DNA of 64,000 nucleotides. It comes from Candidatus Nanoarchaeia archaeon. Lineage in GTDB: Archaea; Nanobdellota; Nanobdellia; Woesearchaeales; GW2011-AR9. A program made the position numbers and the translations under genes. This document shows, piece after piece, positions 18,900 through 30,245 of the stretch. The stretch is taken from NCBI GenBank assembly GCA_035288985.1, contig DATDYP010000005.1, forward strand, positions 1,444 through 65,443. The letters run 5' to 3'. The notes below the pieces were generated by a model, which had not been told where the DNA came from, searched no databases, and saw nothing but the letters and a program-made list of their open reading frames with translations. Numbering within the stretch: position 1 is the first letter of the stretch; every line of letters begins with the position of its first letter.

Positions 18900-19220
18900 A
18901 TGATACGTCTTTACCACCATCAGCGGACAAATGACATCGGAACAACAACTGCACACGGTTTTGCACTACTGGATGTTAAACCGCTGGAAGCTCCGAGACC
19001 TATTGTACTGCGCAGAAACCCGACGAATAAGGGTAATGAACTAGAGCGGAAAGCAGAAGAAGCCGCCAGGCGTTATGAAACAAGTGAGGTACAGGTTGGC
19101 TACACATTAAGCCCAGCCGGCATGCCAGCCAGAGATGCGGCTAGAGAGGTAAGGCTCGATGTCTATGCCCTGCAGATATACCAGATTCTAGACGTGAGAG
19201 GATATATAGAAGTACAATGA
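18900..19220 (+). CDS. Hypothetical protein (106 aa), 4-nt overlap with the downstream AAA+ activator gene
   Basis: ORF; ATGA overlap at 19217-19220. Confidence 0.35.
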   Translation: MIRLYHHQRTNDIGTTTAHGFALLDVKPLEAPRPIVLRRNPTNKGNELERKAEEAARRYETSEVQVGYTLSPAGMPARDAAREVRLDVYALQIYQILDVRGYIEVQ

Positions 19221-20194
19221 CCGAACCACATTACGGAATGATTGGACAAAGCGAAGCGATGCTGAGAGTGTTTAAGGATATTGATAAAATTACGGAAAAA
19301 GGAGTTGGCGCACCTCTTTTCATCGTCGGCGAGACCGGAACTGGAAAGGAATTAGTGGCAAAAGCGATTCACGATTACGGAGCGCGGCAGAAAGGTAGAT
19401 TTTTCCCTGTTGACTCTTCATGCATCAACGGCGAGATTGCAGAATCCCTGCTCTTTGGCCATACACGGGGTTCATTTACTGGAGCAATGGCTAACCAAGA
19501 AGGATACTTTCAAGCTGCAAGACGAGGAACATTATTTTTAGATGAAATAGGCAACCTTCCTTTATCCATCCAGGCCAAACTACTACGAGCCTTGGAATAT
19601 GGATACACTGCTGTCGGGAGCCATACTGAGGAAAAAGCTGATTTCCAGCTGATCACGGCATCAAACAGATCTCTCACGGAACTAGTCAGAACAGGAGAGT
19701 TTAGAGAAGATCTCTATTACAGGATAGCGGGGCACACCATCTCTCTTCCGCCGCTCCGGGAACGGCGAGGTGATGTTGAAGTGCTGGCCGACTATTTCCT
19801 GGAACAGTACAACACCGGGATGGAAATAAGTCCGGCAGCAATGAATCTCCTTAACTCCTACTACTGGCCGGGAAACGTGCGACAGCTTCGTAATGTCATG
19901 GAAATTGCCGTGATAAAAGCGGAAGGCACTGTTATAGAAGCTGGAGATATAGAATCACAATTAGAAAAAACAGAGGGCCTAGAAGGAATCGAAGAAGAAA
20001 TTACCCTTACGGCAATAATAGAGAGAGCGTTTCCGAGCAGTGATCCCTCAAAACTTCCTACCCTAGATCAAATTGAGCGTTGTTATACTGATCGTGTATT
20101 AAAAGCAACTGGATACAGCAAAACAGATGCTGCAAAAATTCTGAAGATATCTATACGCACTCTGCAGCACTGGGCCAAGTGCCGCTCAGAGTAA
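19217..20194 (+). CDS. Sigma-54-interaction-domain AAA+ transcriptional activator (bacterial enhancer-binding-protein type) lacking a sensor domain
   Basis: Walker A GETGTGKE, ESLLFGH, GSFTGA (GAFTGA-like loop), Walker B LFLDEIG, NVRQLRN. C-terminal Fis-type HTH AAKILKISIRTLQHW. Confidence 0.8.
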   Translation: MTEPHYGMIGQSEAMLRVFKDIDKITEKGVGAPLFIVGETGTGKELVAKAIHDYGARQKGRFFPVDSSCINGEIAESLLFGHTRGSFTGAMANQEGYFQAARRGTLFLDEIGNLPLSIQAKLLRALEYGYTAVGSHTEEKADFQLITASNRSLTELVRTGEFREDLYYRIAGHTISLPPLRERRGDVEVLADYFLEQYNTGMEISPAAMNLLNSYYWPGNVRQLRNVMEIAVIKAEGTVIEAGDIESQLEKTEGLEGIEEEITLTAIIERAFPSSDPSKLPTLDQIERCYTDRVLKATGYSKTDAAKILKISIRTLQHWAKCRSE

Positions 20195-21896: not shown

Positions 21897-21976
21897 AGGA
21901 TATAACAAAAAAAACTTTTCTTCCCTACTCAGAATTCACAAGCTTCTTAAAGGAAAATTGCCCATATTAACGTAAG

Positions 21977-23080
21977 ATGTGCGGCATTATAGGCTATATT
22001 GGTGAAAAAGAGGCTAATGATATTCTAATCCAAGGCTTGGAACGTTTAGAATACCGGGGATATGATTCTGACTTAATATCCTCTGAGAACCGATTTTCTT
22101 ATAAAAGGACAGGATCAAATCAAAATATGAATTATGATGTTCAAAAATTGAAGGATATTCAACCATCAGAAGAGGGCATGAATATCTTAAATTTTATGAA
22201 TCCAGAAGATTATTATTGTCGGATTTCTCTATCATTTCAAAAAATTTTAGAACAGAAAATCACTAATTATACAAAAATCGGAAAAACAGTAAATGTATCA
22301 CGTGCAACCATAGCAAGAATATCTACTGTCGAAAATTATTGGATGAATTTTGAAACATTATTAGTATTAGCTAGTTTTCTAAATATCACTAAAAATGAGA
22401 TTTTTGATAATATTACTTCAATTAAAACCCATAATTCTTTCCCGGTTTATTTCAATCTTAAGAATCTCAAATCCCCAGCTTTGTTTAGAATAATAGGCCA
22501 TATTTTAGGCGATGGAGGGATTCATGTTGCTGAAAAAGCAGGCAGATTTAAAGCGTTTTACACAAACAATAAAAAGGAACTGATAGATTCTTTTTCTCAA
22601 GACGTGAAAGAAATATTTGGAGAATTTAAATTATATCATAGAATAAGAGCATCTCAGGTGAATGAGATCTGGTTACCAACGACGATCGGGACTATCTTTT
22701 ACAACATTATGAATTATGAAGTTCTCAATAAGAAAAAAAGAATTCCTAAGTTTATATTTGAAACTCATGATAAATATTTATTAGGGACATTTCTCCAAGC
22801 TTTATACGATGATGAAGGCTATCTCTACCCAGAAAAAAGAATGATAGTGATTGCTCAAAAAAGCAGAGATCTGATTGATGATATTCGACAAGTAGTAATA
22901 AAATTAGGGATTAGACCTAATCAAATATTAATACATCGATCAAAAAATAGAACAACAATGTATTATTTTTCTATAACTCACAGAGACAATTTTAAAATTT
23001 TTAATGAGTATATTGGATTCAAGCATCCAGTAAAGATAAAGAAACTAGAAATGTTAATGAAAAAATATGAGGAACAGTAA
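21977..23080 (+). CDS. LAGLIDADG homing endonuclease (two-motif type) fused in frame to a diverged copy of glmS codons 1-31
   Basis: Starts [31 protein letters not shown] (glmS-like), then an HTH-like [27 protein letters not shown] motifs [11 protein letters not shown] and [12 protein letters not shown]. Strongly AT-rich. Confidence 0.7.
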
Positions 23081-23082
23081 AT

Positions 23083-24822
23083 ATGTGTGGAATAATAGGA
23101 TACATTGGAGATAAGAATAGCGTTGAGATAATAATAGATGGACTAAAAAAACTTGAATATAGAGGATACGATTCTTGGGGTATTGTAGTCCAAAATGAAA
23201 AGAAACTCTTAATAAAAAAGGAAGCAGGAAAAATAAGTGATATTAACTCCTCAACTACAAAACTTCCAGATAGTGGAATCGCAATAGGGCATACAAGATG
23301 GGCAACGACAGGAAAAGTTACTAACGAAAACGCCCATCCCTTCACCGACCAATCCAAGCAATTTGCAGTTGTGCATAATGGCATCATCGAGAATTATCTG
23401 GAACTGAAAGAAGAGCTTAGAAAAGAAGGAGTGGAATTCTCATCAGATACTGATTCTGAAGTGATTGTTCATCTGGTCGCAAAAAATTTTGCTGGAAATC
23501 TCAAGGAAGCAGTGCTGAAAACTATCAAAAAATTACAAGGGGCGTATGCCTTCTGCATTCTCAAAAATGATTCACAAGAGATCATCGGCGCCAGAAATGG
23601 AAGTCCTTTAGTCATCGGCATGGGCAAAAAAGAAAATTTCTTTGCCTCTGATGTTTCTGCTATTATCGAACATACTAGAGATGTTATTTACCTTAATGAT
23701 TTTCAGGTTGCCAGAATAACAAAAGACAATGTTGAAGTGTATAATTTCCAAGGCGAAGAGGAACCTCTCGATGTTCGCGAGGTTAACTGGACTTTAGAAA
23801 AAGCGCAGAAACAAGGCTACAAGCATTTCATGCTCAAAGAGATCTTTGAACAGCCAGAAGTGGTGCGGGAAACGCTGAAAGTTCCTCTGAATGTCACTAT
23901 CAATTTCTCACGGATTATTGTGGTAGCCTGCGGAACGGCCAGTTATGCTGGATTGGTGGGAAAATATATCATTGAAGAAGTAGCTAAAATTCCTGTTGTC
24001 TATGAAATTGCTTCAGAATTCAGGTATAAAGAGCCTCTTCTGGACAATAAGGATCTGGTCGTAGTCATTTCCCAAAGCGGGGAAACTGCTGATACCCTTG
24101 CTGCCGTGAGATTAGCGAAAGAAAAAGGCGCAAAAACGTTGGGCATCATTAACGTTGTTGACAGCACTATCGCCAGAGAAGTTAATGAAAGGATCTACAC
24201 CAGGGCTGGGCCGGAAATTGGCGTGGCCTCAACCAAAGCCTTCATCTCCCAATTGATAATCATGTATAAATTAGCTTTCCATCTAGCCGGAAAAGAATTT
24301 AATAGCGCAGTGATTGAGCCAAAAATAAAAGAAGTCCTCGCCAAACACGAAGAGATCAAGCAACTGGCGCAGAAATACTGCTTATACCAAAACTTCCTCT
24401 ACATCGGCAGAAACAGGAATTTCCCCTTAGCCTTGGAAGGAGCCTTAAAGTTAAAAGAAATTTCCTATATCCATGCCGAAGCCTACCCTGCTGGAGAATT
24501 GAAACACGGCCCTATCGCTTTGGTTTCAGAAGAGATGCCTACGCTTGCGATCTGCCCTCGCGATTCCGTCTATGCCAAAACCTTCAGCAACATTGAGGAG
24601 ATCAAAGCCCGGGAAGGGAAAGTGATTACTATCGCTACGGAAGGGGATCAAGAAATCAGAAAAGTAAGTAATGATGTTATTTACATCCCTAAAGTTGATG
24701 AAATATTGTATCCTTTGCTGTGCACGATTCCACTGCAATTGTTTGCGTATTATATTGCGGACATGAAGGAATGCGATGTTGACAAGCCGAGGAATCTGGC
24801 TAAGTCTGTAACAGTAGAATAA
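23083..24822 (+). CDS. glmS: Glutamine--fructose-6-phosphate aminotransferase (isomerising)
   Basis: N-terminal MCGIIGY (Cys nucleophile), RWATTG, two SIS domains, C-terminal AKSVTVE. 579 aa. Confidence 0.95.
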   Translation: MCGIIGYIGDKNSVEIIIDGLKKLEYRGYDSWGIVVQNEKKLLIKKEAGKISDINSSTTKLPDSGIAIGHTRWATTGKVTNENAHPFTDQSKQFAVVHNGIIENYLELKEELRKEGVEFSSDTDSEVIVHLVAKNFAGNLKEAVLKTIKKLQGAYAFCILKNDSQEIIGARNGSPLVIGMGKKENFFASDVSAIIEHTRDVIYLNDFQVARITKDNVEVYNFQGEEEPLDVREVNWTLEKAQKQGYKHFMLKEIFEQPEVVRETLKVPLNVTINFSRIIVVACGTASYAGLVGKYIIEEVAKIPVVYEIASEFRYKEPLLDNKDLVVVISQSGETADTLAAVRLAKEKGAKTLGIINVVDSTIAREVNERIYTRAGPEIGVASTKAFISQLIIMYKLAFHLAGKEFNSAVIEPKIKEVLAKHEEIKQLAQKYCLYQNFLYIGRNRNFPLALEGALKLKEISYIHAEAYPAGELKHGPIALVSEEMPTLAICPRDSVYAKTFSNIEEIKAREGKVITIATEGDQEIRKVSNDVIYIPKVDEILYPLLCTIPLQLFAYYIADMKECDVDKPRNLAKSVTVE

Positions 24823-25115: not shown

Positions 25116-25808
25116 ATGAAAAGAACTGATCGCATTGATCTCGGTAAATCTGTACGGAGGATAAAAGAAGATCTTCAGGCACAAGGTACAGGACGGCTAG
25201 CCTGTGACATCGATGACACGATAGCAAAAACATCAGATGCATATCATGACTTGCTGTCAAGACAATTTCCTCCTCCGGAAGCGCTCACCAAAGACAGCCT
25301 GAGAAAACATTACGCCTTAACCGGAAGGATTCTTCATTGGGGAGATATTCCAGAAGCTAACGCCTTTGCCTATGAGTTCATTGATGATCCTCACTTTCAT
25401 GCCCAAATGGACCCGCTGGACGGAGCAATCGCAGGAACGCAGGAATTATGGCTGCAACAGCGCCTTGCCTGTTATCTTACGGTAAGATCAGAAGCGATGA
25501 GAAGTGAAACAGAATGCTGGTTTTCAAGATATGACTTACCCACCTTACCGCTGGCTATGCGAGATGCTGCGCATTCAGCAAGCAATGCCCAATGGAAGGC
25601 TGCTGCTCTGGAATATCTTTTTCCTGAAGTGCAGGGAATCATTGATAATGACGCGCGTATTGCACGGTTGTTAGAAGAACAGGGATACCGGGGAAAGGTG
25701 TTCTTATTAGGGTTAAATGAACATGAATATGCTCCTTCAAACATCGTAACTCCGATAGAAGATTGGGCGGAATTGACACGGGTAATTCTGGATATGTTCC
25801 CAGAATAA
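25116..25808 (+). CDS. HAD-superfamily hydrolase-like protein (putative)
   Basis: LACDIDDTIAKT gives the DxDxT motif I. Start is uncertain (ORF opens at 25059). Confidence 0.4.
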   Translation: MKRTDRIDLGKSVRRIKEDLQAQGTGRLACDIDDTIAKTSDAYHDLLSRQFPPPEALTKDSLRKHYALTGRILHWGDIPEANAFAYEFIDDPHFHAQMDPLDGAIAGTQELWLQQRLACYLTVRSEAMRSETECWFSRYDLPTLPLAMRDAAHSASNAQWKAAALEYLFPEVQGIIDNDARIARLLEEQGYRGKVFLLGLNEHEYAPSNIVTPIEDWAELTRVILDMFPE

Positions 25809-25974
25809 TGTACTCCTTTGCGAATGAATGATGGCGGGCCGTAGTGGTTTTCTCTGTTTTTTGTATATAAGAGATGGTATAAAGGTTGGGGGGAAGCAAG
25901 TATTAATATTTCAAATTTATAGAAATAATAATTACTCAGATAATTTTATATATTACCTAAAGAGAAATAACATT

Positions 25975-26787
25975 ATGCTGAATAGTAGGAAACGAAAAAA
26001 AACAAGTCCAACAAAAATAGATAAGTATCAGATTAAAAAATCAAAGTATGGTCCTGTTGGATTGATACGTGAGAATAAAGGACTAACATCAACCTCCAAA
26101 AACTTTAATAGATGGTTTCTTAAAAAATTTCCAACAGAAAGGGATGCTCATTTTTTCAGCCACGTTTATCATTCACGGTTTGGCCAGTTTGGAAGATTGT
26201 TTCAATTTTATATTGAACTTTATGAATATCTTGACATATCATCAAGTGATGTCTCCCATTTAAAACAACTCTACTATTCCTTAGAAAATAGTGATGCTAA
26301 TAGAAAAAAAGAAGATTTCAAAAGGAATTTTCTTTTTCTTTTACGAAAATTAGAAGAAACTGATGAGAACATTTATTCTCGACTAAAAGATTTTTATAAT
26401 ATTGAATGTTATAGAATCAGTGAAGGGATGAACTGTTTAAGTAGCCGATGTAATCTTGCTGCTGTTGTAATGATTGTTTCTGCTGTAGAGAATAGATTAC
26501 ATAAAGTAATAGAAAAAAAAGAAAAGTCCTTGTACGAAAAGGAATTTAAAAAAGCAACTTTAGGTAGCATAATAGAGTTGTGGCGAAAAGATACTCGCTA
26601 TAAAGATCCTAAATATGATCGATTAAAAAATATCCTTCCTGAAAAACACAACCACTTAATCGAAGTTCTAAATACATATAGAATATTTTCTGCACATGCA
26701 AAAGAAGAGTTTATTTCTTCACAAATGGCAAAAGCAATAATTCTACTCTCCTTTTTATTACTGATGGACAAAAGCCTAAGAATTTAA
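25975..26787 (+). CDS. Hypothetical protein with C-terminal HEPN-like Rx4H motif (putative)
   Basis: NTYRIFSAHAKEE contains R-x4-H. AT-rich islet. TATA-like taattttatatatt about 20 nt upstream of ATG 25975. Confidence 0.3.
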   Translation: MLNSRKRKKTSPTKIDKYQIKKSKYGPVGLIRENKGLTSTSKNFNRWFLKKFPTERDAHFFSHVYHSRFGQFGRLFQFYIELYEYLDISSSDVSHLKQLYYSLENSDANRKKEDFKRNFLFLLRKLEETDENIYSRLKDFYNIECYRISEGMNCLSSRCNLAAVVMIVSAVENRLHKVIEKKEKSLYEKEFKKATLGSIIELWRKDTRYKDPKYDRLKNILPEKHNHLIEVLNTYRIFSAHAKEEFISSQMAKAIILLSFLLLMDKSLRI

Positions 26788-26819
26788 TCAGGAAAATTTC
26801 TACTTTTCGATGCCAGGGT

Positions 26820-30151: not shown

Positions 30152-30245
30152 GGACCCGTAGCCTAACCTGGATAGGGCGACAGGACTATAGTCTCGCCAA
30201 AGCCTCCTAAGCTGTAGGTTGTGAGTTCAAATCTCATCGGGTCCG
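30152..30245 (+). tRNA. tRNA-Arg(CCU) with a 19-nt non-canonical intron (30184-30202, between positions 30/31)
   Basis: Acceptor GGACCCG/CGGGTCC, D stem GCCT/GGGC, T arm GTGAG-TTCAAAT-CTCAT. After intron removal the anticodon arm is ACAGC-CTCCTAA-GCTGT (anticodon 30206-08). Confidence 0.75.

Follow-up and report, generated by a model that had tools for sequence, protein, structure and literature searches.

How does an open reading frame (ORF) for a putative homing endonuclease come to begin with the first codons of glmS when an intact glmS starts directly behind it, and which of the two glmS 5' ends is the host's own? Homing endonucleases are thought to survive in essential protein genes only by way of self-splicing introns or inteins, or else to lie between genes. 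The locus addressed here was found in a 64,000-nucleotide stretch of contig DATDYP010000005.1 (the window, analyzed at its full length), assigned to a Candidatus Nanoarchaeia archaeon. The window DNA stems from a metagenome-type assembly and is heterogeneous in GC content. The original prediction for this DNA had described a LAGLIDADG ORF that starts with a duplicate of the glmS leader and lies two nucleotides upstream of an intact glmS, and had interpreted it as a free-standing endonuclease that homed into this gene. All of its sequence-level statements were confirmed, the pattern lies well outside what chance would produce, and the homing scenario found support on every point that could be tested, including empty sites in 11 relatives.

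Layout of the glmS locus

The upstream ORF is composed of 31 native glmS codons, a linker predicted to be disordered, an HTH-like region and a complete two-motif LAGLIDADG endonuclease, and only two nucleotides (AT) separate its TAA from the glmS ATG (Table 1). The host's own glmS 5' end is displaced upstream and fused in frame to the endonuclease, native glmS codons 32-79 are replaced by the cassette, and the low-GC foreign tract continues past the endonuclease stop to cover the initial ~237 nt of the glmS behind it. Sequence comparison delimits the cassette to a short spacer, the HTH and two-motif LAGLIDADG gene, a Shine-Dalgarno (SD)-like motif, and a foreign glmS segment that is complete from codon 1 to about codon 75-79.

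Table 1. Features of the glmS locus, numbered by their position in the window
Feature	Position	Strand	Remarks
Native glmS upstream element, conserved, CTTTTCTTCCCTACTCAGAATTCACAAGCTTCTTAAAGG	21915..21953	+	Near base-for-base alignment with the glmS upstream regions of relatives
TATA-like CTTAAA	21946-21951	+	25 nt ahead of ATG 21977
Upstream ORF (endonuclease)	21977..23080	+	367 aa; TAA stop at 23078-23080
Copy 1: native glmS codons 1-31 and first base of codon 32	21977..22070	+	In-frame N-terminus of the endonuclease ORF
Whole cassette, about 1.25 kb	22071..23319	+	Linker, endonuclease, SD-like motif and foreign glmS codons 1-79
Linker, aa 32-67 of the ORF	22071..22177	+	Predicted disordered, pLDDT 30-59
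Endonuclease core, aa 68-367 and stop	22178..23080	+	Pfam, AF2 model, Foldseek, dN/dS
HTH-like domain, aa 90-144	22244-22408	+	Pfam HTH_26, 0.012 (weak)
LAGLIDADG motif 1, GHILGDGG	22496-22519	+	
LAGLIDADG motif 2, LQALYDDEG	22793-22819	+	
Shine-Dalgarno-like GAGGA	23069..23073	+	In the final endonuclease codons, with 9 nt between it and the glmS ATG
glmS, full	ATG 23083 to 24822	+	579 aa; GATase and two SIS domains
Copy 2: foreign glmS codons 1-79	23083..23319	+	Identity drop against empty alleles; low GC
Native glmS remainder, codons 80-579 and stop	23320..24822	+	Matches empty alleles as closely as they match one another

The putative endonuclease

The body of the ORF matches Pfam LAGLIDADG_3 (8.6e-14), a type of endonuclease domain associated with inteins, and its best sequence matches include the RFC, IF-2 and RtcB intein models. 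Its acidic residues are D179 in motif 1 and D278, D279 and E280 in motif 2, and the positions D179/G180/G181 and D278/D279/G281 are invariant in 39 family members. The AlphaFold (AF2) model is confident for aa 68-367 (pLDDT >90). Foldseek matched this model to I-DmoI, PI-PfuI, PI-PkoII and PI-SceI at a probability of 1.00, as well as to the endonuclease domain of the Tli VMA intein, with a TM of about 0.7 over all of I-DmoI, and the predicted structure displays the pseudo-dimeric alpha-beta-beta-alpha-beta-beta-alpha LAGLIDADG fold. The dN/dS of 0.07-0.10 indicates purifying selection. Based on the invariant acidic motifs, the low dN/dS and the confidently modeled I-DmoI-like fold, the endonuclease looks intact.

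Origin of the two glmS 5' copies

The two 93-nt leaders encode 22 of 31 identical residues and share 63% of their nucleotides, with synonymous sites between them being saturated (pS 0.97). Either an old duplication or a foreign glmS allele had been suggested as the source of these differences, and both leaders were aligned with glmS from related genomes. Compared with four empty (insert-free) alleles, copy 1 displays 77-86% nucleotide identity, with a pN of 0.04-0.09, and the leader of copy 2 62-68%. The protein encoded by copy 1 agrees with the empty-allele consensus, and its homology to native glmS stops at GATTCTG; the upstream element aligns with those of 11 insert-free relatives and of the insert-bearing loci L001 and L023. 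Judged against these 11 genomes, which share the gene neighborhood, the upstream leader and promoter region is identified by its sequence as the native copy, and codons 1 to ~79 of the downstream glmS as foreign.

The boundary between foreign and native glmS is sharp. Nucleotide identity of the window glmS to the 11 empty alleles amounts to 0.39-0.60 over codons 1-79 and to 0.74-0.83 downstream, the switch falling directly after codon 79 (GTT), and the window GlmS is 49% identical to its closest empty allele (L014) over aa 1-79 versus 91% over the rest. Of the two origins suggested, this boundary and the 11 empty alleles favor the foreign one. They also support the proposal that duplication or co-conversion of the 5' end preserved the host gene; the duplication itself stands, but its supposed length of 31 codons does not, as the foreign segment spans 79. 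The low GC of copy 2 is continuous with that of the endonuclease. Its N-terminus is 55% identical to those of L002 and L008, whereas native alleles reach only 38-43% with L008; with the L002 N-terminus, empty alleles share 46-55%, a range that overlaps the 55% of copy 2. The GlmS that is expressed takes its catalytic Cys1 and its HTRWATTGKV loop from copy 2. The reading frame of this foreign 5' segment continues into host codon 80 and beyond, so that the locus still encodes a complete chimeric GlmS whose N-terminal Cys is free.

Distribution of the element and empty sites

The endonuclease family comprises about 50 proteins, all from DPANN archaea, and was examined at 15 distinct loci drawn from independent NCBI, ENA, JGI and Logan assemblies. 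At these loci, whose outer flanks differ, the endonuclease gene always adjoins a full glmS, at a distance of -13 to +5 nt. An identical copy of the window protein was found on 6 contigs. Related contigs carry genes for archaeal ribosomal protein, Spt4 and Rpb7, an archaeal chromosomal setting, and a search for a viral or plasmid vehicle found no relatives of the endonuclease among IMG/VR viral contigs or GenBank phages.

The search for empty sites revealed that the insert is absent in 11 of 13 related species (12 from the scan plus L001), the GlmS of these 11 being 81-85% identical to that of the window. The bolA/grx neighbors upstream of the window locus are present in six of them, and among these six the PEP-utilizer gene is also present only in L019. 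In the closest pair of a filled and an empty allele (L001/L021), both flanks share 89-93% nucleotide identity, and the difference is exactly the cassette unit. Counting the window, the insert occurs in 3 of 14 closely related species. These three genomes are not mutually nearest by glmS, and the nearest glmS relative of each is an empty allele; the window glmS, for instance, is 91% identical to the empty L014 and 87% to the filled L001. Between distant hosts, endonuclease identity (54%) is above that of GlmS (37-40%). Seen from these sequence comparisons, the endonuclease element looks mobile. The three insert-bearing genomes of the window clade have diverged deeply, the element being 72-77% identical at the nucleotide level and dS saturated. 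No recent transfer was detected among them, and the element may instead have persisted vertically for a long time with occasional recombinational loss.

The mosaic pattern is repeated in a second clade, where sequence comparison places the break at codon 75. There, copy 1 of L096 is 93% identical in nucleotides to the empty allele L108 and copy 2 71%, and the L096 glmS is 68-73% identical to L108 up to nt ~225 and 83-89% beyond it. Both clades are polymorphic for the presence of the insert at a single homologous site, with a shared gene neighborhood and breakpoints at codons 75-79. That copy 2 travels with the endonuclease is clear from the nearest-neighbor test in the window clade, for which close empty alleles were sampled. 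Two alleles without an endonuclease (L107 and L051) have an element-type N-terminus, and the "foreign" type of segment therefore also occurs by itself. Among more distant proteins, a 30%-identical relative in L102 has an overlap with the start of a SufS-like gene, for which a duplicated leader was sought and none convincing was found; L103 and L104 have other neighbors. Host-gene fusions were not found at the N-termini of second-tier relatives, of which 29 among the best profile matches were inspected.

Insertion site and linker

The break after RGYDS had been regarded as the target site, and this does not hold for the family. In at least seven family proteins the in-frame leader ends at GH(T/V)RWA, and out-of-frame remnants of the same stretch (IGHTRW, SHTRWA, HIRWA, TRWA) lie just 5' of the "leaderless" endonuclease genes of L008, L097, L098 and L099. 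These motifs locate the family-wide insertion point after codon 75, at the boundary of codons 75/76 between HTRWA and T, in the conserved glutamine-site loop and not at RGYDS. The RGYDS break is the end of the recognizable native sequence in the window lineage. We tentatively propose that linker aa 32-67 probably represent glmS codons 32-75 in decayed and partly deleted form, together with a spacer of about 20 codons that belongs to the element. MAFFT aligned RFSYKR of the linker beneath the GH(T/V)RWA of other family leaders, the distance from this motif to MNILN is 17-25 aa across the endonuclease family, and the GlmS HMM alignment of the ORF extends to about aa 55. When linker DNA was compared with native codons 33-80, the signal was marginal in the window (z 0.5-2.0), about z 2 in L001 and up to z 5 in L023.

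Expression signals

Native glmS starts have a TATA-like box about 25 nt upstream, and an SD-like motif was sought upstream of ATG 21977 and found to be absent. The upstream element is thus a candidate promoter of a leaderless glmS mRNA, which would now drive the endonuclease ORF. In line with this, the idea that the endonuclease borrows the native promoter and start is supported by the alignment of copy 1 and the upstream element with empty alleles. At the downstream glmS, which has its own ATG or GTG start in all loci, positions -16..-4 relative to the start contain an SD-like 4-mer in 13 of 15 loci. Intervals of the same kind inside the endonuclease bodies contain one in 6.2% of cases (binomial p = 2e-14), and native (empty-site) glmS starts have one in 2 of 11. 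These signals point to leaderless transcription combined with SD-driven reinitiation. The translational coupling that had been suggested for the two ORFs is plausible, given that the SD-like motif lies within the last endonuclease codons in these 13 of 15 loci.

Alternative explanations

Several observations would also fit a domesticated, immobile resident, i.e., a fixed and vertically inherited partner in a glmS operon such as a DNA-binding regulator, with the mosaic being one ancient relic: the low dN/dS despite saturated dS among the three closest copies, the position beside glmS that is invariant over a wide phylogenetic distance, the extra HTH domain, and the missing viral or plasmid vehicle in the IMG/VR and GenBank phage searches. 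Yet we consider such a resident unlikely, since the gene is patchily present in close species that are not mutually nearest by glmS (3 of 14), both catalytic acidic positions are invariant in the 39 members, filled and empty alleles coexist at about 91% flank identity, and leaders are frameshifted, deleted or missing, a turnover typical of selfish elements. Moreover, a filled allele has lost native codons 32-79 and cannot restore the native-type empty state by itself, so that empty alleles in sister lineages imply either gain or recombinational allele replacement. Quite improbable, in our view, is a former GlmS intein inserted before Thr76, which would have lost its splicing blocks while the gene was rescued by a 5' duplication, an alternative that the original prediction had kept. 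The endonuclease domain is indeed of an intein-associated type, with best matches to PI-PkoII, PI-PfuI, Tli VMA and the RFC/IF-2/RtcB models, and the insertion point lies directly ahead of a Thr, a valid +1 nucleophile, in a conserved active-site loop. The GlmS of Methanocaldococcus jannaschii carries an intein, which we count in favor of this alternative; its insertion site was not found in the literature searched. However, the HMM search matched no Hint or N-/C-terminal splicing model at E up to 1 (Pfam) and 10 (NCBIfam), and the leader is followed by D/A/E or linker instead of Cys/Ser, with no terminal His-Asn. Every family member ends in a stop followed by a separate glmS start (the window ORF in KKYEEQ and TAA), a GlmS-sized intein host was found neither among the about 50 family members nor among the best 150 profile matches, and the next tier of free-standing relatives is likewise without intein.

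A group I or archaeal intron was rejected, as the Rfam gathering search of the whole window returned only one tRNA (30152-30245) and nothing near the locus; since glmS is complete, no splicing is needed. That the leaders are direct repeats of one gene segment in one genome could suggest a purely local history, in which a tandem 5' duplication arose within the locus, rapid divergence of the expressed copy followed, and an endonuclease gene of unrelated origin came to lie between the repeats, with nothing foreign involved. We disfavor this scenario as very improbable: it is at odds with the sharp boundary between copy 2 (49%) and the adjoining 500 codons (91% identical to the native type), with copy 2 being nearer to the distant insert-bearing N-termini of L002 and L008 than native alleles are to L008, and with the two-allele pattern and its same breakpoint seen again in the second clade. 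As to an assembly or binning chimera joining two glmS alleles, for which the metagenome-type assembly and the heterogeneous GC could be invoked, its probability seems negligible in view of the identical protein on 6 contigs, the same architecture in 15 loci from independent assemblies, and reading frames that are intact and under selection.

Proposed homing mechanism

We therefore consider it likely that the locus harbors a mobile cassette whose homing endonuclease is specialized for the glmS gene in DPANN archaea (Woesearchaeota / Nanoarchaeota), with cleavage of glmS as a predicted activity. The endonuclease would be transcribed from the native glmS promoter and translated from the native, apparently leaderless start codon, and glmS would be translated as a second cistron via the SD-like motif. 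In an insert-free genome, the enzyme would cut glmS near codons 75-80, and during repair the displaced 5' copy would serve as the left homology arm and glmS past codon 79 as the right arm, by which the cassette would be copied in. The element-borne copy would escape re-cutting because its site region differs from native alleles. Differences between native and element-borne alleles are CGN to AGA, AGC to GCN, CAY to ACN and CCN to GTN, and the foreign segment of the chimeric GlmS has Thr at position 77, where His is usual. In the window lineage, codons 32-75 of the displaced native copy would later have been lost or have decayed. Recombination between the copies, which are direct repeats, could remove the endonuclease, with cleavage-resistant "footprint" alleles like those of L107 and L051 as the outcome. 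A Pro79-to-Val/Ile signature is present in 13 of 15 filled versus 3 of 78 empty alleles; it was rejected as an immunity mutation, being confounded by phylogeny since second-clade empty alleles also have Val. Beyond the cassette itself, we lean, with some reserve, towards seeing here an active and undescribed class of archaeal selfish elements that home without intron or intein, carry a "portable 5' exon" and their own ribosome-binding site, capture the leaderless start of the host, and, as a side effect, repeatedly exchange the catalytic N-terminal part of GlmS, from Cys1 through the HTRWAT loop, between distant DPANN archaea.

Relation to known systems

The free-standing homing endonucleases of T-even phages (SegF, SegG, MobE) perform "intronless homing". 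Like the glmS element they lie beside the targeted gene, free of intron or intein, and spread by double-strand-break repair and co-conversion that create mosaic genes, but they are of the GIY-YIG or HNH type, are located between genes or split a gene in two, and are not known to duplicate the 5' end of their target or to fuse to it. With PI-PfuI, PI-PkoII, PI-SceI, the Tli VMA intein and the archaeal intron-encoded I-DmoI, the element shares the two-domain LAGLIDADG fold and motif pattern as well as the insertion at conserved active-site motifs of essential genes, yet it has no Hint domain and no ribozyme, and the host gene is kept by a duplicate at the DNA level and not by splicing. The literature searched contained no description of an endonuclease in or next to glmS, nor of such an architecture in prokaryotes. 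To our knowledge, the solution of bringing a spare copy of the displaced gene piece has been reported so far only for 3' gene ends in fungal mitochondria.

These are the mORFs with a foreign gene terminus in atp6 of Allomyces macrogynus, in atp6, atp9, cox2 and nad3 of Glomus sp., in atp9 of Rhizopus and in cox2 of Mortierella (PMC3630166). In both systems a LAGLIDADG ORF (among mORFs also GIY-YIG) moves together with a foreign version of one terminus of the gene it invades, and this ORF can share the reading frame of the host gene. The foreign terminus is expressed as an in-frame fusion with the core of the resident gene, which yields a hybrid gene made by horizontal transfer, and the displaced native end is kept adjacent as a duplicate, being the copy that resembles close relatives. 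Whereas mORFs replace the 3' (C-terminal) end in organelles, the glmS cassette replaces the 5' (N-terminal) end of an archaeal chromosomal gene, and an entire family of endonucleases keeps to a single gene and a single site. The displaced native end would, furthermore, not be silent, but give its promoter and start codon to the endonuclease, and as the start is given away, the cassette must bring its own translation signal, the SD-like motif. The glmS cassette works like the mORF class without being a member by descent or setting. In "fractured genes" (PMC2677866), a free-standing endonuclease gene likewise lies inside a conserved protein gene in environmental prokaryotic sequences, between gene halves that carry split inteins; there, the host protein is reported to be re-joined by split-intein trans-splicing, in contrast to the glmS locus, which re-joins nothing as its downstream gene is complete.

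The glmS family can be seen as the mirror-image (5') version of the spare-copy solution, realized by a conserved endonuclease family at one site of an archaeal chromosomal housekeeping gene, and the in-frame fusion would give the parasite free expression since the native glmS start appears leaderless. If true, this would widen the repertoire of strategies of prokaryotic selfish elements and explain mosaic GlmS sequences able to mislead phylogenies and annotation, the upstream ORF being prone to erroneous annotation as a pseudogene or fragment of glmS. It would also provide a natural set of LAGLIDADG enzymes with a predictable target, at about codons 70-85 of glmS.

An apparently intact LAGLIDADG endonuclease ahead of glmS

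The original prediction of a LAGLIDADG open reading frame with a glmS-like leader, ending 2 nt before an intact glmS, is borne out by coordinates, domains, motifs and structural model. Between the two 93-nt leaders, 22 of 31 residues and 63% of bases are identical, and synonymous differences are saturated. In the body of the ORF, a LAGLIDADG_3 domain accompanies a weak match to a Cro/C1-type HTH (aa 90-144), and the motifs GHILGDGG and LQALYDDEG are invariant among 39 family members. The AlphaFold model leaves residues 1-66 disordered, is confident from 68 onwards, and matches single-chain LAGLIDADG enzymes (I-DmoI, PI-PfuI, PI-PkoII, PI-SceI and the Tli VMA intein endonuclease domain). On these grounds, the ORF is predicted to encode a complete enzyme. 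The adjoining glmS carries Thr at codon 77, in the glutamine-site loop, where nearly all GlmS have His (WATTG versus WATHG); Thr or Cys also occupies this position in some other element-linked alleles.

Features of the glmS locus and the surrounding window
Feature	Position	Strand	Description
Enhancer-binding protein	19217-20194		Sigma54_activat (2e-53), AAA lid, Fis-type HTH
Conserved non-coding element	21915-21953		~40 nt, upstream of glmS
Endonuclease ORF	21977-23080	+	367 aa, N-terminal glmS-like leader, stop TAA
Inserted unit	about 22071-23319	+	from comparison with empty alleles
glmS	start 23083	+	two bases past the endonuclease TAA; 579 aa, glutaminase + two-SIS, normal architecture
glmS codon 77	23311-23313		Thr
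Low-GC island	25800-26800		28-31% GC, flanks 43-50%
ORF in low-GC island	25828-26787		319 aa
tRNA	30152-30245		94 nt, Rfam 46 bits, no anticodon assigned by ARAGORN

Native and foreign parts of the locus

Which leader is native, undecided in the original prediction, can be read from empty sites in related genomes. A scan of species-representative genomes found 12 species with GlmS 79-85% identical to that of the window, 11 of them without the endonuclease; six of these 11 share the window's upstream bolA/grx neighbours, and one of the six (L019) also the PEP-utilizer gene. The GlmS N-terminus of these empty alleles matches the window's upstream leader, and at the DNA level 60 nt of upstream sequence plus the leader can be aligned with them up to GATTCTG (codon 31/32), where similarity ends. 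Identity of the downstream glmS to the empty alleles is just 0.39-0.60 in its first ~237 nt, versus 0.74-0.83 from right after codon 79, the level found among the empty alleles themselves. Compared with GlmS of the empty locus L014, aa 1-79 are 49% identical and the remainder 91%. The foreign codons 1-79 and the endonuclease form one continuous low-GC block. Since the empty alleles match the upstream leader together with its promoter, this copy is the native one; codons 1-79 of the expressed glmS, after which the identity switches, are foreign. The closest filled and empty pair (L001 and L021), 89-93% identical on both flanks, differs by exactly the 1.25-kb unit.

A second clade, with filled (L002, L096) and empty (L105, L106, L108) alleles, has one common gene neighbourhood, Ribosomal_S2 - glmS - PGM; in L002 and L108, Trm5 can also be seen upstream. 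Compared over 105 nt from the start, the upstream and downstream copies of L096 are 93% and 71% nt identical to the empty L108, and its glmS is 68-73% identical to that of L108 over nt 0-225, then 83-89%. Two further alleles (L107 2501-4273 and L051 3965-5827) have an element-type N-terminus (…HTRWATTGRV and …HTRWATCGKV) without a preceding endonuclease gene; they may be the footprints left after direct-repeat recombination removed the endonuclease, or the portable segment may come from such lineages in nature.

An endonuclease family dedicated to one site

A sequence search returned 44 relatives of the endonuclease body, all of 200-415 aa and metagenomic, the named ones being Nanoarchaeota or Woesearchaeota. 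Against 1.8 billion representatives, a profile search yielded a few more members and, past the family, a large and more distant tier made up of free-standing archaeal HTH-LAGLIDADG proteins together with some inteins that lie in large proteins. Nineteen members carry a significant N-terminal GlmS leader. At all 15 distinct loci examined (the window, L001, L002, L004, L007, L008, L011, L023, L094 and L096-L101), a full-length glmS start adjoins the endonuclease gene end (13 nt overlap to 5 nt gap), while the outer neighbours vary. Past codon 79, the glmS of L097 (start 3504) finds its closest counterpart (71%) in the glmS of the CPR bacterium L054 (Komeilibacteria) rather than in an archaeal one, which hints at inter-domain transfer of glmS itself. 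A distant relative (L102 2734-3804, about 30% identity, LAGLIDADG_3 and C-terminal wHTH) overlaps at its end, by 8 nt, the start of a gene for a SufS-like cysteine desulfurase (3797 onward; MFNVEKIREDFPILK...), possibly a parallel gene-adjacent arrangement; no duplicated leader is evident at that gene.

In-frame leaders extend to GH(T/V)RWA in P0014, P0016, P0019, P0035, P0036 and P0045 and, in decayed form, in P0030 and P0034; frameshifted remnants precede endonuclease genes without an in-frame leader (IGHTRW in L008, SHTRWA in L097, HIRWA in L098, TRWA in L099). Because leaders and remnants end at HTRWA and 17-25 codons separate the motif from the endonuclease core throughout the family, the left junction is placed after codon 75 (HTRWA|T), only a few codons away from where the foreign tract ends on the right, at codon 79; such near-coincident boundaries are expected for a single insertion at one site. 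The break after RGYDS originally proposed does mark the end of native similarity in the window, but it is lineage-specific. There, RFSYKR falls under the GH(T/V)RWA position (MAFFT) and native codons 32-75 appear deleted or decayed, residual DNA homology of the linker to them being marginal.

Alternative origins

A decayed intein is unsupported for the present structure: Pfam and NCBIfam scans matched no Hint or intein splicing domain in the ORF, which has its own stop codon while glmS has a separate start, and the free-standing reading of the original prediction is kept. The intein-type endonuclease and an insertion site preceding Thr make it a possible remote origin. Domestication as a regulator is argued against by the patchy distribution and intact catalytic motifs, in-situ duplication of the glmS 5' end by the sharp 49%/91% GlmS mosaic and the second clade, and an assembly artefact by the independent assemblies behind the 15 loci.

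Mobility and proposed homing route

Several observations favour a mobile element that is still active. The endonuclease core is under constraint (dN/dS = 0.07-0.10), with invariant catalytic positions. The insert occurs in three of 14 closely related species, the window counted, which are not mutual nearest relatives by glmS. Between distant hosts, the endonuclease is 54% identical versus 37-40% for GlmS. Against such mobility, the copies in the three species diverged from one another long ago (72-77% nt identity, dS saturated), and no viral or plasmid vehicle was found among IMG/VR viral contigs and GenBank phages searched for endonuclease relatives. We propose that the endonuclease would cut the empty allele near codons 75-80, the right end then pairing with donor glmS downstream of codon 79 and the left end with the displaced upstream copy, not the diverged downstream one. 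The upstream copy would thus be re-templated from each new host, which would explain its native-looking, conserved first 31 codons (pN 0.04-0.09). Since native codons 32-79 are gone, a filled allele cannot revert alone to a native-type empty allele, which also speaks for mobility.

Other features of the contig

The enhancer-binding protein is bacterial-type on an apparent DPANN archaeal contig, which is odd because, to our knowledge, archaea lack sigma-54; L019 has a 60%-identical copy. The tRNA is probably an intron-containing archaeal one. The low-GC island may be another foreign insertion; its ORF has no convincing family match.

Inferred expression logic and significance

Native glmS starts are preceded, at a distance of about 25 nt, by a conserved TATA-like box and, at 9 of 11, lack an SD-like motif, which suggests a leaderless mRNA. 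The conserved element with this box also precedes the endonuclease ORF in filled alleles. This non-coding element, CTTTTCTTCCCTACTCAGAATTCACAAGCTTCTTAAAG, lies at equivalent positions in L014-L025 and hardly varies among a dozen species, although identity of their coding sequences is only about 80%. Its conservation exceeds the need of a TATA box alone; it includes the palindrome GAATTC and may hold a regulator binding site. An SD-like 4-mer, encoded by the last endonuclease codons, lies 4-16 nt before the downstream glmS start at 13 of the 15 loci (background 6.2%, p = 2e-14).

The closest known system is that of fungal mitochondrial endonuclease ORFs, which bring in a C-terminal segment of the gene from a foreign source, while the native C-terminus stays behind downstream as a duplicate (Allomyces atp6; Glomus atp6, atp9, cox2 and nad3; PMC3630166). 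The glmS element works the same way, joining a foreign terminal segment and leaving the native end as a duplicate, but in mirror image, at the 5' end; unlike them, it resides on an archaeal chromosome, captures the host start and belongs to a family dedicated to one site. The literature searched describes neither an endonuclease at glmS nor such an arrangement in prokaryotes.

GlmS is an N-terminal-nucleophile amidotransferase requiring a free Cys1, so plain insertion in frame, or fusion to its N-terminus, would inactivate it. As predicted from sequence, the cassette would solve this: the endonuclease takes over the old start, and glmS receives a fresh, complete 5' end that includes a ribosome-binding site. 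We consider it likely that the locus harbors a mobile homing-endonuclease cassette dedicated to glmS with a portable foreign 5' segment, and give present-day homing activity somewhat better than an even chance.
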